A stretch of DNA of 64,000 nt from an uncultured Fibrobacterota bacterium (GCA_963729895.1 CAVSQB010000022.1:119971-183970); one strand, 5' to 3'. Shown: positions 1 to 15,183, counted from the first letter of the stretch. A program made the numbers and translations. Notes: generated from the letters alone by a model not told the origin.

Positions 1-680
1 GGACAATCATCAACAATACGTACCGTCGTAACGGACTTAAAAACGTCAAGTGAACGGCATATTTCGTCAAGGCACCGGTCGACAGTCCGGTAACGGATTT
101 TTCTGCTGGAAATCTCACGGACCTCGCAAAAAGAACAATTGAAAGGGCAACCTCTCGAAAGTTGGATCGGCAACCATTTCATCTGCGAACTTCCGATTCC
201 CCAACGGAAGTCCGCTTCGGGTATCGATCCGCCTTCCACCGGCGCCGGCCTGAGAATCCCGAGGTCTTTTCCCGAGAGAACCTTTGTGCAGATATCAACG
301 ATTACCTGTTCGGCTTCACCTCTCACAACAGCCGAAAAGAAAGGGTGCTCTTCCTGTAAGGTTTGGGCGTACAGTGCGACGTGCGGCCCGCCCGCAATAA
401 TCTTGCAAGCACTATTCTTTGCATGAAACCGGTGTACGAAATCAAGCGAACGGCCGAAATGAGTCGTGTACAACGATATGCCGCAAATATCCGGAGAATA
501 TCCTGCGACCCTCTCAAGAAATCGATCGTCGGGTTCGTTAAGGAACGACTGATCGAAGACGGAAGCCTCGAATCCGCTTTTCCGAAGTACGGTGGCCAAC
601 AGAACGAGTCCATAATGCGGCCAATGCGATCTTGTGTCCGATCGGCCGGCATTTATGGACACAAGAGCAACTTTATTCAC
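1..680 (-). CDS. B12-binding domain radical SAM protein (N-terminal part; gene runs off the left edge)
   Basis: Absent from the supplied ORF track because it has no stop inside the window. My reverse-complement translation from GTG at 680 reads VNKVALVSINAGRSDTRSHWPHYGLVLLATVLRKSGFEASVFDQ..KIIAGGPHVALYAQT..MKWLPIQLSRGCPFNCSFCEVREISSRK. This is a Rossmann-like B12-binding segment followed by the CxxxCxxC radical-SAM motif. It supersedes track ORFs 323..652(-) and 363..770(+). Confidence 0.8.
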   Translation of the reverse strand, partial: MNKVALVSINAGRSDTRSHWPHYGLVLLATVLRKSGFEASVFDQSFLNEPDDRFLERVAGYSPDICGISLYTTHFGRSLDFVHRFHAKNSACKIIAGGPHVALYAQTLQEEHPFFSAVVRGEAEQVIVDICTKVLSGKDLGILRPAPVEGGSIPEADFRWGIGSSQMKWLPIQLSRGCPFNCSFCEVREISSRKIRYRTVDRCLDEICRSLDVFKSVTTVRIVDDC

Positions 681-742
681 GGTATTTTCGCAAGCCTTTC
701 CATAGCTGATTTCAACACTCGCCACTCGCCACTCGTGCGCGC

Positions 743-1528
743 TTATTGTGCTGCCGGATACCTTGCATAAATATCGCCCGACATGGTCGGGGTTACCTTT
801 TCCCGAAAGGCGGCCAGGAATTCATGGATTGCAATCCAGTCACCATGTACGAAGTTCAACGAACCGTGGAGGGTGTAATTGAATGTGGGCGCACCGAGAG
901 CATTCAGCAATCTTAGACATTTCTCTACTTCATCAAGCATCTCGACCCTGAATTCAAATGAGACGAATGGAATGCAATGCGTCAAGCCTGACAGCACCTG
1001 TCGTTCGAACCCCTCGACGTCGATTTTACAGAATTGCGGCAAACCATAAGAGTCGATTAAAGAATCCAGCGTTACCGTTTCGATTGAAACGGTCTTGTTC
1101 CACTTAAAGAGGCCAGCATATCGGCTTTGCTTTACCCAGCGCGGCGACATCGTTGAGATTCCCGAATTATACTCGCACACATAGAGTTCCGTGTTCCCGG
1201 GTTCTTCGGCAACCGCTTTTCCGACAATGGAAACATTGGGATTGGTTCCATATCGTCTTTGGAGGGCTCGAAGGCACACTGTTTGGGGTTCAACGCTTAT
1301 GACACGCGCACCAAGCGCCAGGAATATTTCCGTTACGTCCCCTACATTGGCGCCGATATCGAAACACAGGCTTTCTTTACTTATGAAGTGCGAATAAAAT
1401 CGAGACAGAGTGTTGAATTGCGTTCTTCCATGCGGGGAATGATGATCGTACCAGATTCTAAGTTGTTGCGCCAGCGGATACATGCGAAAAGCATGGGCAA
1501 TTTTTGTCGCGAGAGCAAAAGCTTTCAT
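743..1528 (-). CDS. FkbM-family SAM-dependent methyltransferase
   Basis: 261-aa ORF with ..CFDIGANVGDVTEIF.. (SAM-binding loop) and ..FCKIDVEGFE.., typical of FkbM-family methyltransferases. Confidence 0.85.
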   Translation of the reverse strand: MKAFALATKIAHAFRMYPLAQQLRIWYDHHSPHGRTQFNTLSRFYSHFISKESLCFDIGANVGDVTEIFLALGARVISVEPQTVCLRALQRRYGTNPNVSIVGKAVAEEPGNTELYVCEYNSGISTMSPRWVKQSRYAGLFKWNKTVSIETVTLDSLIDSYGLPQFCKIDVEGFERQVLSGLTHCIPFVSFEFRVEMLDEVEKCLRLLNALGAPTFNYTLHGSLNFVHGDWIAIHEFLAAFREKVTPTMSGDIYARYPAAQ

Positions 1529-13490: not shown

Positions 13491-13722
13491 TCCCCGGGCG
13501 AGCCGGAATGTATCGTACCATCATTATACTATTTTTTTGCTGCGGAAACTATGGCCGCGACCTTGCAAGGACAACGAAGCGTTCGCGGCAACCGAACAGG
13601 GCATCTCGCAAAACCCCGCGCCTTCCCACGGCAGTTTGCAAAGAATAGTAGTGATTTTTGCCTGCGAAACAACTAGAATTAGAGTATCGCATTTTCCCGG
13701 TCTTCGTGCTCTAAAAGCAAGC

Positions 13723-15183
13723 ATGATACGCATGAACAACAAGCGCATATTTTCCTGGAAGCCGGACTGGCCGTTTCTTGCCGTGTGCGCGGGCGTGCTG
13801 GTTCTCCTGCTGCTTTTCCCCGTGCTGTTCGGCGGCAAGCGGGAAGACCCGTATTTTTCCTACAAAATAATGTGGCTCAATTACCTCGGTCACCGGTTCA
13901 AACTTCCTCTTGAGACTCCCAAGCCGCTGTTTGCATTCCTGTGCGGGATTGCGGGACAGGCAGCACTGTATCCGATAACGTGTTGCTTTGGCGCAGGCGT
14001 GCTGGGCCTGCTCATGAAACTGTCGCAGAAGCTCGGAAAGCCCGGTTGGGCGGGACTCGTTGCATTTGCGCTCTTCCTGGTCAGCAACAAAATAGTACTT
14101 CCGGAGTTCATCCTGGGTGCGTACTGGCCCCTGCCGTTCCTTTTCTTCACCCTTGCGGCGGTGTACTTTTTTGTCAATACGTGGACGCTCGCAACCGCGA
14201 TTTCGTTGCTGTGCGCCGGTCTGCTGAGGCCCGAGGCGTGGTTGTTTCCCCCGATCTTTGCGGCAGTCGCTCTTGCAAAGAGAGACCGGAGCTTTTCCTG
14301 GTGGCTGTTTGTTCCCCTGCTTGCGCCGGTCATCTGGGCGCTTTTTGACGGAAGGATTTCGGGAAGCCTGACCTATTCAATGGACATGACGAAATACTAC
14401 TGGCAGACCCTGGGGGTCCTTCCGGCGCCTTTTGGAAAGTTCTGGGAGGCAACCGGCGGGGACCTGGCTGCCAATTTCTACCTGCCGGTACATCTGGCCG
14501 GCCTTGCCGGCCTCGGCTACTTTGTGATGAAGACCCGGCGCGCCGAGCACCTGCTCATGGCGGTCCTTTCCGCCCTGCCCTTCTTATTCTTCTGGCTGCT
14601 CTCCCTCCAAAGCCCGGTGATAACACAGGTGCGGTTCTTTGCCTTTCCAATGCTCGTACTGTGTCTGTATGCGGTGCTTTTTCTTTTCGACCTGTCACCG
14701 GGAAAATGGATCGCCCTAGCCTTGTGTTGCCTTCTTGTGTGCATCGGATTTCGAGAAGACCTAGTCCCGAACACGGTGAGGATGATTCAAGGCGATTGCG
14801 CCACTGCCCGCGCAAGGGCAGGAACCCTTGAAACGGTAAGGAGCATGGAAAAGAAAGCGGCCGTTATTCTTTGCGGGAGATCCGCCGGGTACTTTGCCTA
14901 TCAACTTGGAGAAACGGCATCGCAGAAGATATTCATGTTCAGAGAGGCCGCCACCAGGCCGGATGTGATGCAGAATGTTTCTACCGGGGTCGCGGTTTAC
15001 GTGAGCAACGATCTCGCAGGCATGGACAATGTGTTCCGTTTTCTTTCAAGACCACACCCGTATTGCGCAAACGGATTCGGCTTTTCTCCCGTGCGCATAG
15101 CGAGCGGGGGCAACGGCATTGTATACGACATCGAAAGGTTGCCAGACGCGACTTTGCAGCCGTCACTGCCATCGAGGCGCTAG
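13723..15183 (+). CDS. polytopic membrane protein (possible further GT-C-like enzyme; function unknown)
   Basis: The track ORF starts at 13456, but its first 89 codons lie in the divergent promoter region. ATG 13723 (MIRMNNKRIFSWKPDWPFLAVCAGVLVLLLLF..) precedes the first helix. It has many helices and a ~110-aa soluble C-terminus. Confidence 0.6.
   Translation: MIRMNNKRIFSWKPDWPFLAVCAGVLVLLLLFPVLFGGKREDPYFSYKIMWLNYLGHRFKLPLETPKPLFAFLCGIAGQAALYPITCCFGAGVLGLLMKLSQKLGKPGWAGLVAFALFLVSNKIVLPEFILGAYWPLPFLFFTLAAVYFFVNTWTLATAISLLCAGLLRPEAWLFPPIFAAVALAKRDRSFSWWLFVPLLAPVIWALFDGRISGSLTYSMDMTKYYWQTLGVLPAPFGKFWEATGGDLAANFYLPVHLAGLAGLGYFVMKTRRAEHLLMAVLSALPFLFFWLLSLQSPVITQVRFFAFPMLVLCLYAVLFLFDLSPGKWIALALCCLLVCIGFREDLVPNTVRMIQGDCATARARAGTLETVRSMEKKAAVILCGRSAGYFAYQLGETASQKIFMFREAATRPDVMQNVSTGVAVYVSNDLAGMDNVFRFLSRPHPYCANGFGFSPVRIASGGNGIVYDIERLPDATLQPSLPSRR

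Follow-up and report, generated by a model that had tools for sequence, protein, structure and literature searches.

A type IV pilin gene among five GT-C-type membrane proteins: a candidate pilin O-glycosylation locus in an uncultured Fibrobacterota bacterium

The first 15 kb of a 64,000-nucleotide stretch of DNA from an uncultured Fibrobacterota bacterium (GCA_963729895.1 CAVSQB010000022.1:119971-183970; the whole stretch is referred to as the window) encode several large polytopic membrane proteins grouped around one type IV prepilin gene. What do these proteins do, and does the pilin belong with them? An earlier note had read positions 1-15183, the island, as a module for protein glycosylation and glycan tailoring, with the adjacent pilin and/or Ig/cadherin-like lipoproteins as possible acceptors. 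The island was analysed by an open reading frame (ORF) map, Pfam and NCBIfam scans and the gene calls on L001, a metagenome contig identical to the window that reaches further upstream. Its gene content was as described, with coordinates that agree exactly or to a few codons. The closest homologues of its ArnT-like protein, 69-73% identical, are in metagenome-assembled genomes labelled Chitinivibrionales, Fibrobacterota or Fibrobacteres, and the source is a Chitinivibrionales-like Fibrobacterota. As judged from sequence comparisons, the island very probably encodes periplasmic machinery for glycosylation from lipid-linked sugars. The pilin is probably a principal acceptor of the two enzymes of the island that carry tetratricopeptide repeat (TPR) domains, and on balance the island is best read as a pilin O-glycosylation and glycan-tailoring locus resembling pilA-tfpW of Pseudomonas aeruginosa group IV.

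All five polytopic proteins are of GT-C type by profile or predicted fold, as had been proposed. The assignment is strongest for two of them. The ArnT-like protein (6875-8536, + strand; 553 amino acids, aa) matches PMT_2 (59.5 bits, E 5.9e-16), and its D30-x-D32 and DKPP motifs are invariant in 12 of 12 homologues. The top NCBIfam model is the ArnT equivalog, but the score of 67.7 bits against a cut-off of 567 means that the protein is not ArnT itself. ArnA-, ArnB-, ArnC- and ArnD-type genes (arnA-F) were not found in the island. The second protein, unk8 (13723-15183, + strand, 486 aa; the gene caller places its start at 13732), has no Pfam or NCBIfam match. Its AlphaFold2 (AF2) model has a predicted local distance difference test (pLDDT) value of 86.5, and the top 41 Foldseek matches in the PDB are almost all GT-C enzymes (probability 1.0, TM-score about 0.5), including ALG12, AglB, STT3, ArnT, ALG9, PglB, AftA, DPY19 and Pmt4, with a few GPI-transamidase subunits. 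E41 is at least 90% conserved within a 'KRED' motif after transmembrane (TM) segment 1. With 47 clusters at E<=1e-30 in a set of 1.84 billion representatives this is a small family, whose distant relatives resemble PMT_2 only marginally. Since distant homologues occur in other contexts (L087, 10001-11482; L088, 10001-12121), the unk8 family is not tied to pilins. One distant homologue, 55% identical, adjoins an LtaS-like sulfatase and a metallophosphatase; another homologue, 40% identical, is fused to TPRs and lies beside TPR proteins, a SPASM radical-SAM (S-adenosylmethionine) protein and a CDP-alcohol phosphatidyltransferase.

The assignment is weakest for the DUF7657/DUF7654 protein, where it comes from predicted fold, and for TPR1, where it comes from paralogy. 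The former (4169-6184, - strand; 671 aa; Pfam E 8e-107 for DUF7657 and 1.3e-26 for DUF7654) is modelled with a pLDDT of 91.1 as a putative GT-C fold followed by a C-terminal alpha/beta domain. Its top 13 Foldseek matches in the PDB are all GT-C proteins (E 1e-3 to 0.1, TM-score 0.27-0.39), with ArnT (5f15), PglB, STT3, AftA, AftD and EmbC represented. Directly after TM segment 1, R85 and D87 do not vary among 33 homologues, in which E88 and W89 are at least 90% conserved. A literature search returned no mention of DUF7657 or DUF7654. The models newly assign a predicted GT-C fold to Pfam DUF7657 and to the small, unannotated unk8 family.

TPR1 (9288-11501; 737 aa) and TPR2 (11511-13490; 659 aa) are tandem paralogues on the - strand, each of which begins with about 11 TM segments and ends in a TPR domain; these, and their relatives, are called TPR-GT-C proteins below. 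The TM count was taken from the hydropathy profile of an 11-member family alignment, a rough method and not a dedicated topology predictor. TPR families are matched by Pfam at residues 400-720 of TPR1 (up to E 2e-40) and 430-650 of TPR2. The N-domains of the two proteins are 48% identical (E 4e-113). Only TPR2 reaches PMT_2 (29.6-30.7 bits, cut-off 26.1), and a PMT_2 match was obtained for 6 of the 11 members of the family. In the 11-member alignment D60 and D61, a DD motif in loop 1, are invariant (11/11; TPR1 has DDD), as is Y-x6-P-x7-P in the loop at 277-316. An acidic motif in the first extracytoplasmic loop is conserved in the TPR-GT-C family, the ArnT-like protein, the DUF7657 protein and unk8. 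Single-sequence searches of the PDB gave only TPR matches for TPR2 and nothing for the ArnT-like protein, DUF7657 or unk8, and the profile of the TPR-GT-C N-domain gave only noise against PDB sequences. Comparison with the ArnT-like alignment by hhalign was insignificant (probabilities of 16% for TPR-GT-C, 1.4% for unk8 and 0.3% for DUF7657), so that with these shallow alignments the five proteins are not linkable to each other by sequence.

The gene in their midst (8787-9215, + strand) encodes a 142-aa type IVa-like prepilin (N_methyl, E 2.5e-10). The leader is 10 residues long and ends in Gly (MRFLRNKTKG, followed by FTLVELM), the C-terminal half is rich in Ser/Thr (26%), and a C-terminal Cys-Cys loop is present. 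A Myxococcus-type PilA model of NCBIfam is matched at E 6.7e-19, below its cut-off. Homologues fall into more than 120 clusters at 56% identity or above, some of them named Chitinivibrio... by NCBI. The prepilin had been described as solitary. It carries the sole prepilin motif in a scan of the 64 kb, and no PilB, PilC, PilD, PilM-Q or secretin family was found in Pfam scans of 30 further large window ORFs. The gene is bracketed by a promoter-like site on its 5' side (8619-8647, + strand; TTGACA-17-TAATAT, 10/12 consensus match) and a terminator-like hairpin (9247-9267, + strand; 7-bp stem with 5 GC pairs, then a T-run); both are consensus matches, and the sigma-70 consensus may not suit this phylum. 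The hairpin lies between the pilin and TPR1 genes, which are immediate convergent neighbours, ending at 9215 and 9288 (73 bp). On another contig (L175; ENA ERZ25039529 contig_7843) an identical 142-aa pilin and a 553-aa PMT_2 gene occur with a downstream TPR gene that ends about 560 bp past the pilin, in comparison with 73 bp in the window, and the sequences point to strain-level variation at this junction.

Other modifications of the pilin were also considered. N-glycosylation came into question because 7 of 11 pilins have NxS/T sequons that align with one another and because unk8 has fold matches to STT3, PglB and AglB. It was rejected, as unk8 is without WWDxG after its last TM segment and these fold matches are generic for GT-C. 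In the pilin the O-glycosylation motif of Bacteroidota, D(S/T)(A/I/L/V/M/T), is present as D-S-A, which the orthologues do not conserve.

Do the pilin and the enzymes stay together in other genomes? A block consisting of a DUF4177-like ORF, a variable GT-C gene, one or two pilin genes and two or three TPR-GT-C genes is seen in five locus types with differing flanks, namely the window, L006, L084/L085, L086/L170 and L171. L006 has the order GT2 (family 2 glycosyltransferase), GtrA, B12 radical-SAM, DUF7657, DUF4177, ArnT-like, two tandem pilins, TPR1 and TPR2, then FkbM-like methyltransferases. In L084 and L085 a 497-aa PMT_2 protein on the opposite strand is accompanied by DUF4177, two pilins, two TPR-GT-C proteins, an unk8-type GT-C, PAC2 and Dus. 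L086 and L170 carry a TPR protein, DUF2142 as a further GT-C family, DUF4177, a single pilin, three TPR-GT-C proteins, an unk8-type GT-C and PAC2. L171 has B12 radical-SAM, DUF4177, ArnT-like, pilin and two TPR-GT-C genes; on either side, dTDP-sugar, DegT and other sugar genes stand in place of the flanks. The L171 locus was reached from the pilin search, and those of L006, L084-L086 and L170 from enzyme searches. The slot beside the pilin is occupied by the ArnT-like protein, the 497-aa PMT_2 protein or DUF2142; different GT-C families filling one slot is the pattern of a variable glycan locus.

The DUF4177-like ORF (6449-6721, + strand; 90 aa) is called as a gene on L001 and scores 24 bits against the DUF4177 cut-off of 25. 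Its product is 92-96% identical across seven related genomes, including L005, L006, L084, L086, L170 and L171, in which the products of the genes next to it (GT-C, pilin, TPR) are only 50-80% identical. It always stands at the left edge of the pilin block, and neither a signal peptide nor a TM segment was found in it.

The same parts were also found in organisms that are not close relatives. A metagenome scan with the TPR-GT-C N-domain gave at least 600 pattern matches, from which 80 loci at 43-53% identity were kept; tandem TPR-GT-C paralogues occur in about one third of these. A prepilin gene is nearby in four. L100 is a single-strand array of a pilin, two TPR-GT-C genes, a GT2, a third TPR-GT-C gene and a B12 radical-SAM gene. 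In L163 a TPR protein, a pilin and two TPR-GT-C genes are met convergently by a GT2, a 670-aa PMT_2 protein and a methyltransferase. In L130 and L166 the pilins are divergent neighbours of the TPR-GT-C gene. These unrelated contigs have G+C contents (GC) of 40% (L100), 43% (L163) and 57% (L130 and L166), as against 54% for the window. The GT2s encoded in L100 and L163 score highest with models of polyprenyl-phosphate sugar synthases (PgfS, dolichyl-P-hexose transferase, ArnC, PpgS), each score being under its cut-off. No other evidence considered speaks as strongly for pilin, TPR-GT-C, GT2 and methylating enzyme working together as this recurrence of the parts, reordered, in organisms that are not related. 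Pilin O-glycosylation from polyprenyl-phosphate sugars is thus supported both by the pilin/TPR-GT-C block in relatives and by the parts list in unrelated contigs.

A precedent for such a pairing is available, although the earlier note had stated that no characterised bacterial TMTC-type system was known to its author. TfpW, encoded in the pilA-tfpW(-tfpX) locus of P. aeruginosa group IV strains, is a GT-C arabinofuranosyltransferase/oligosaccharyltransferase of 646 aa; it is predicted to have 11 TM segments, its C-terminal TPR domain is periplasmic and the DDX motif of its loop 1 is essential. Its best structural template is ArnT, its gene lies immediately 3' of pilA, and it is necessary and sufficient to attach D-arabinofuranose (D-Araf) oligomers to the pilin (bioRxiv 10.1101/2020.04.19.049825). 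Compared by published features, TPR1 and TPR2 share with TfpW the approximately 11 TM segments, the C-terminal TPR domain and the DD of loop 1. The Y-x6-P-x7-P motif resembles the YX6PFX7P of TfpW, located in a late periplasmic loop. In both systems the enzyme gene is directly beside a type IV pilin gene and a polyprenyl-phosphate monosaccharide would be the expected donor. The island differs from pilA-tfpW in several respects. Two tandem paralogues (up to three in relatives) take the place of one enzyme, and their genes are convergent to the pilin gene instead of downstream on the same strand; L100 and L163 have the downstream arrangement. Also present here are genes for GT2 and GtrA, candidate methylating enzymes (FkbM and B12 radical-SAM) and three more GT-C proteins, which have no TPRs; the host phylum is Fibrobacterota. 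Families of the D-Araf pathway (DprE1/DprE2-type) were not matched among the scanned island and window ORFs, where no search was aimed at DprE1/DprE2 themselves, which would imply a sugar other than D-Araf. A further candidate precedent, the Ogt of Synechococcus encoded beside pilA, was rejected as it is a GT41-family and not a GT-C enzyme.

Pilin modification by PilO/TfpO and PglL (Wzy_C, O-antigen-ligase type), some of them also encoded beside pilA, is different in that preassembled oligosaccharides are transferred en bloc from undecaprenyl pyrophosphate, not monosaccharides stepwise. A PglL/TfpO-type O-oligosaccharyltransferase was excluded here, since no Wzy_C domain was found by Pfam or NCBIfam in any island protein.

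The accessory enzymes named in the earlier note were borne out by profile or motif matches. The left end of the window encodes about 241 of the 493 aa of a B12-binding radical-SAM protein, its N-terminal half (<1-725, - strand); the gene exits the window start, and the translation holds the B12-binding domain and the cluster motif CPFNCSFC. The complete gene on L001 (493 aa) matches PF02310 and PF04055, and among NCBIfam models it comes closest, with every score below cut-off, to class B radical-SAM enzymes (BchE, C- and P-methyltransferases). Next to it is an FkbM-family SAM methyltransferase (743-1528, - strand; PF05050 E 1.9e-13; TIGR01444 93.5 bits, cut-off 37.7). On L001 a GtrA-family gene (GtrA_DPMS_TM, E 1.3e-14), a 253-aa GT2 (E 4.8e-28) and a GNAT gene adjoin the radical-SAM gene just upstream of the window start. 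Housekeeping genes, PAC2 and then DusB, follow 3' of unk8. The membrane protein with a spermidine-synthase fold (1779-4094, + strand; 771 aa) is a fusion with a major facilitator superfamily (MFS) domain (Spermine_synth E 4e-15; MFS_1 E 2.7e-9; NF037959 116 bits, cut-off 40). A conventional polyamine set at 52048-55159 (- strand), consisting of an Orn/DAP/Arg decarboxylase, a soluble spermidine synthase and an AdoMet decarboxylase, is present elsewhere in the window; the membrane-fused protein is thus an additional paralogue, and its substrate may be another one. On L174 a fusion related to it (27% identity) is encoded 3 kb away from a pilin paralogue.

Several observations weigh against a dedicated link between the pilin and these enzymes. 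In L004 and L005, where the ArnT-like protein is 72-73% identical, the ArnT-like gene and both TPR-GT-C genes are kept along with the DUF4177-like ORF, and the gap between them (about 200 bp in L004, about 380 bp in L005) has no prepilin ORF. PAC2 and Dus synteny is also kept in several relatives, so that part of the neighbourhood conservation could be shared ancestry. No pilin is nearby in 76 of the 80 kept metagenome loci, and with only 5% of loci having one the TPR-GT-C family overall is not dedicated to pilins. Pilin paralogues 59-77% identical occur in four other contexts without TPR-GT-C. The ArnT-like protein has 77 homologues in Bacteroidota (31-38% identical), the group from which most of its matches in a scan of genome contigs came; they served as a negative control, and within 10 kb of these the other genes of the island, including the pilin, were not found. 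Finally, the top models for the GT2 adjoining the island are of TuaG, WcaE and arsenosugar type and not GtrB or ArnC. The block is conserved but not obligatory. The expectation that prepilin, ArnT-like and TPR genes would co-occur in related genomes was borne out in several of them, where the ArnT-like or another GT-C gene accompanies the pilin and TPR-GT-C genes, but not in L004 and L005, which lack the pilin, and some loci have a replacement for the ArnT-like gene.

Could the TPR-GT-C proteins be general O-glycosylation enzymes of the periplasm, comparable to the eukaryotic TMTCs, with many envelope and surface targets such as cargo of the type IX secretion system (T9SS) or Ig-like lipoproteins? 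The pilin would then be no more than one of many substrates, and its position would be largely incidental. The great size of the family, the many pilin-free loci and the retention of the enzymes in L004 and L005 would all be expected, and both T9SS cargo and Ig-domain proteins are encoded in the window. The family also has the DD motif described for TMTCs and motifs that resemble their HPxHxE, K....T and (D/E)RxxY (PMC7801869). We nevertheless consider general O-glycosylation unlikely. The pilin adjoins these genes in at least four arrangements in unrelated lineages, with the same accessory genes each time; TfpW, the one characterised bacterial protein of this architecture, is pilin-specific; and the Ig-like and T9SS genes were not linked to the enzymes in any relative examined.

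The likeness to TMTCs on which this alternative draws was itself examined. In TMTC1-4, cadherin-specific O-mannosyltransferases of eukaryotes from the GT-C/PMT clan, about 11 TM segments precede a TPR domain that is lumenal, where the domain here would be periplasmic, and EL1 has a DD motif. As compared by eye, 'HPLHVESV' is similar to the 'HPIHT' of TMTC3, 'KPMxVT' to KET(Q)xxT of EL3 and 'DRYTY' to ERxxY of EL5, with D for E (PMC7801869). SHKSYRP is missing from the family, its hosts are bacteria and the acceptor would be another one. DUF1736, the signature that TMTCs have in their TM7-TM8 loop, was found in 0 of 11 family N-domains at E<=0.1 and, for TPR1 and TPR2, not even at E<=5. The earlier term 'TMTC-like' is thus apt for the look of architecture and motifs only and does not make these proteins members of the TMTC family.

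The composition of the island raises a different alternative. GC falls from 58.3% (2001-4000) to 45.3% (4001-6000) at the boundary between the MFS/spermidine-synthase and DUF7657 genes, and because of this drop the island is suggested to be mosaic and possibly horizontally acquired. Most or all of the GT-C proteins might modify non-protein acceptors (lipid A or lipopolysaccharide core, cell-wall or capsular polysaccharide, exopolysaccharide), like ArnT, GtrS-type O-antigen glucosylation or DUF2142-type decoration, with the pilin a passenger in a variable surface-glycan island. The GC jump and the variable slot beside the pilin fit such a passenger. Further points in its favour are that ArnT is the top curated model of the ArnT-like protein, that the Bacteroidota homologues of this protein have no pilins, and that related islands have nucleotide-sugar biosynthesis genes typical of polysaccharide loci. 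DUF2142 proteins are treated in papers on the cell-wall polysaccharide loci of lactic acid bacteria; there they presumably act as GT-C enzymes. It has to be set against this that the ArnT score is far under the family cut-off and the arn genes are absent from the island, and that a C-terminal TPR domain on GT-C enzymes has so far been tied to protein acceptors (TfpW, TMTC). Non-protein acceptors would also leave the co-occurrence of a pilin with two or three TPR-GT-C genes in unrelated contigs unexplained. We regard this alternative as quite improbable and retain pilin O-glycosylation as the preferred reading. The proposal of a glycosylation and tailoring module acting on the pilin is strengthened by the GT-C assignments, the upstream GtrA and GT2 genes and the recurring pilin/TPR-GT-C adjacency, and weakened by the loci that do without a pilin.

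How could the parts act together? GT2 synthase, flippase-type protein and GT-C enzyme are also combined in the three-component systems (GtrA/GtrB/GtrS, CsbB-GtcA-YfhO, PgfS/PgfM1/PgfM2 of Streptococcus mutans, GT136 pentofuranose; PMC11127046). The GtrA and GT2 genes that adjoin the island, and the GT2s of L100 and L163 with their nearest models, are in line with such a scheme. Most known systems of this kind use one GT-C enzyme, which decorates polysaccharides or teichoic acids, whereas here five GT-C proteins of different families surround a pilin gene, and the GT2 next to the island is not clearly of GtrB type.

In the mechanism proposed, the small GT2 encoded just upstream of the window would load a sugar onto polyprenyl phosphate, and its partner, the GtrA-family membrane protein, is a candidate for carrying the lipid-linked sugar across the inner membrane. 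The TPR domains of TPR1 and TPR2 would recruit the membrane-anchored pilin, and these two enzymes, with about 11 TM segments and DD in the first periplasmic loop, would transfer sugars to Ser/Thr residues of its exposed C-terminal half. The ArnT-like, DUF7657 and unk8 proteins may act in the periplasm to lengthen the glycan or add branches to it, or may have other acceptors, and the FkbM and B12 radical-SAM enzymes would methylate the sugar. It is doubtful whether a single pilin glycan is the target of all five GT-C enzymes. Equally tentative is the fullest form of the scheme, a periplasmic assembly line in which a complex methylated O-glycan could be built stepwise on the type IV pilin from polyprenyl-phosphate monosaccharides by the five enzymes.

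The rest of the window has features that do not touch the island directly. A 770-aa secreted protein (23567-25879, - strand) with ricin-B lectin, GH76, CBM6 and a T9SS C-terminal sorting domain is consistent with the Fibrobacteres-Chlorobi-Bacteroidetes (FCB) group; a GH16 gene (22454-23506) adjoins it, and the pair resembles a small mannan- or glucan-attack locus. Transposase genes are present at 32083-32940 (- strand) and 37945-38823 (+ strand), these being of the rve-type integrase plus helix-turn-helix (IS3-like) and IS1595-family DDE types. A 581-aa protein (60378-62123, - strand) with an Mrr-type restriction endonuclease domain, which the NA-iREase1 model also matches, is encoded in a stretch of 43.5% GC and may be a horizontally acquired defence gene.

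The island is probably a more elaborate version of a known type of locus, a pilin gene with an adjacent glycosyltransferase of GT-C and TPR domains, and not a new category. Bacterial GT-C proteins with TPR domains and TMTC-like motifs are extremely common in environmental metagenomes, as the number of matches in the scan indicates. Almost none has been characterised, and TfpW is the only one found, as judged by its published architecture. The parts list of a pilin, two or three TPR-GT-C proteins, a GT2 and a methylating enzyme offers a concrete and testable substrate hypothesis for the family. If the assembly line is real, it would be a bacterial counterpart of the stepwise glycosylation in the lumen of the eukaryotic endoplasmic reticulum and would give a very large, uncharacterised TMTC-like bacterial family a defined natural substrate, and two families previously unrecognised as GT-C (DUF7657/DUF7654 and unk8) would join pilin-glycan assembly. 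The literature on TPR proteins and pilin in cellulose adhesion of Fibrobacter succinogenes gave no link to GT-C enzymes; type IV pilins as such have been implicated in that adhesion. In Pseudomonas, pilin glycans influence pilus assembly and phage resistance (bioRxiv 10.1101/2020.04.19.049825). On both grounds, a hypervariable pilin-glycan island would, in Fibrobacterota, bear on attachment to surfaces and on defence against phages in polysaccharide-degrading communities.

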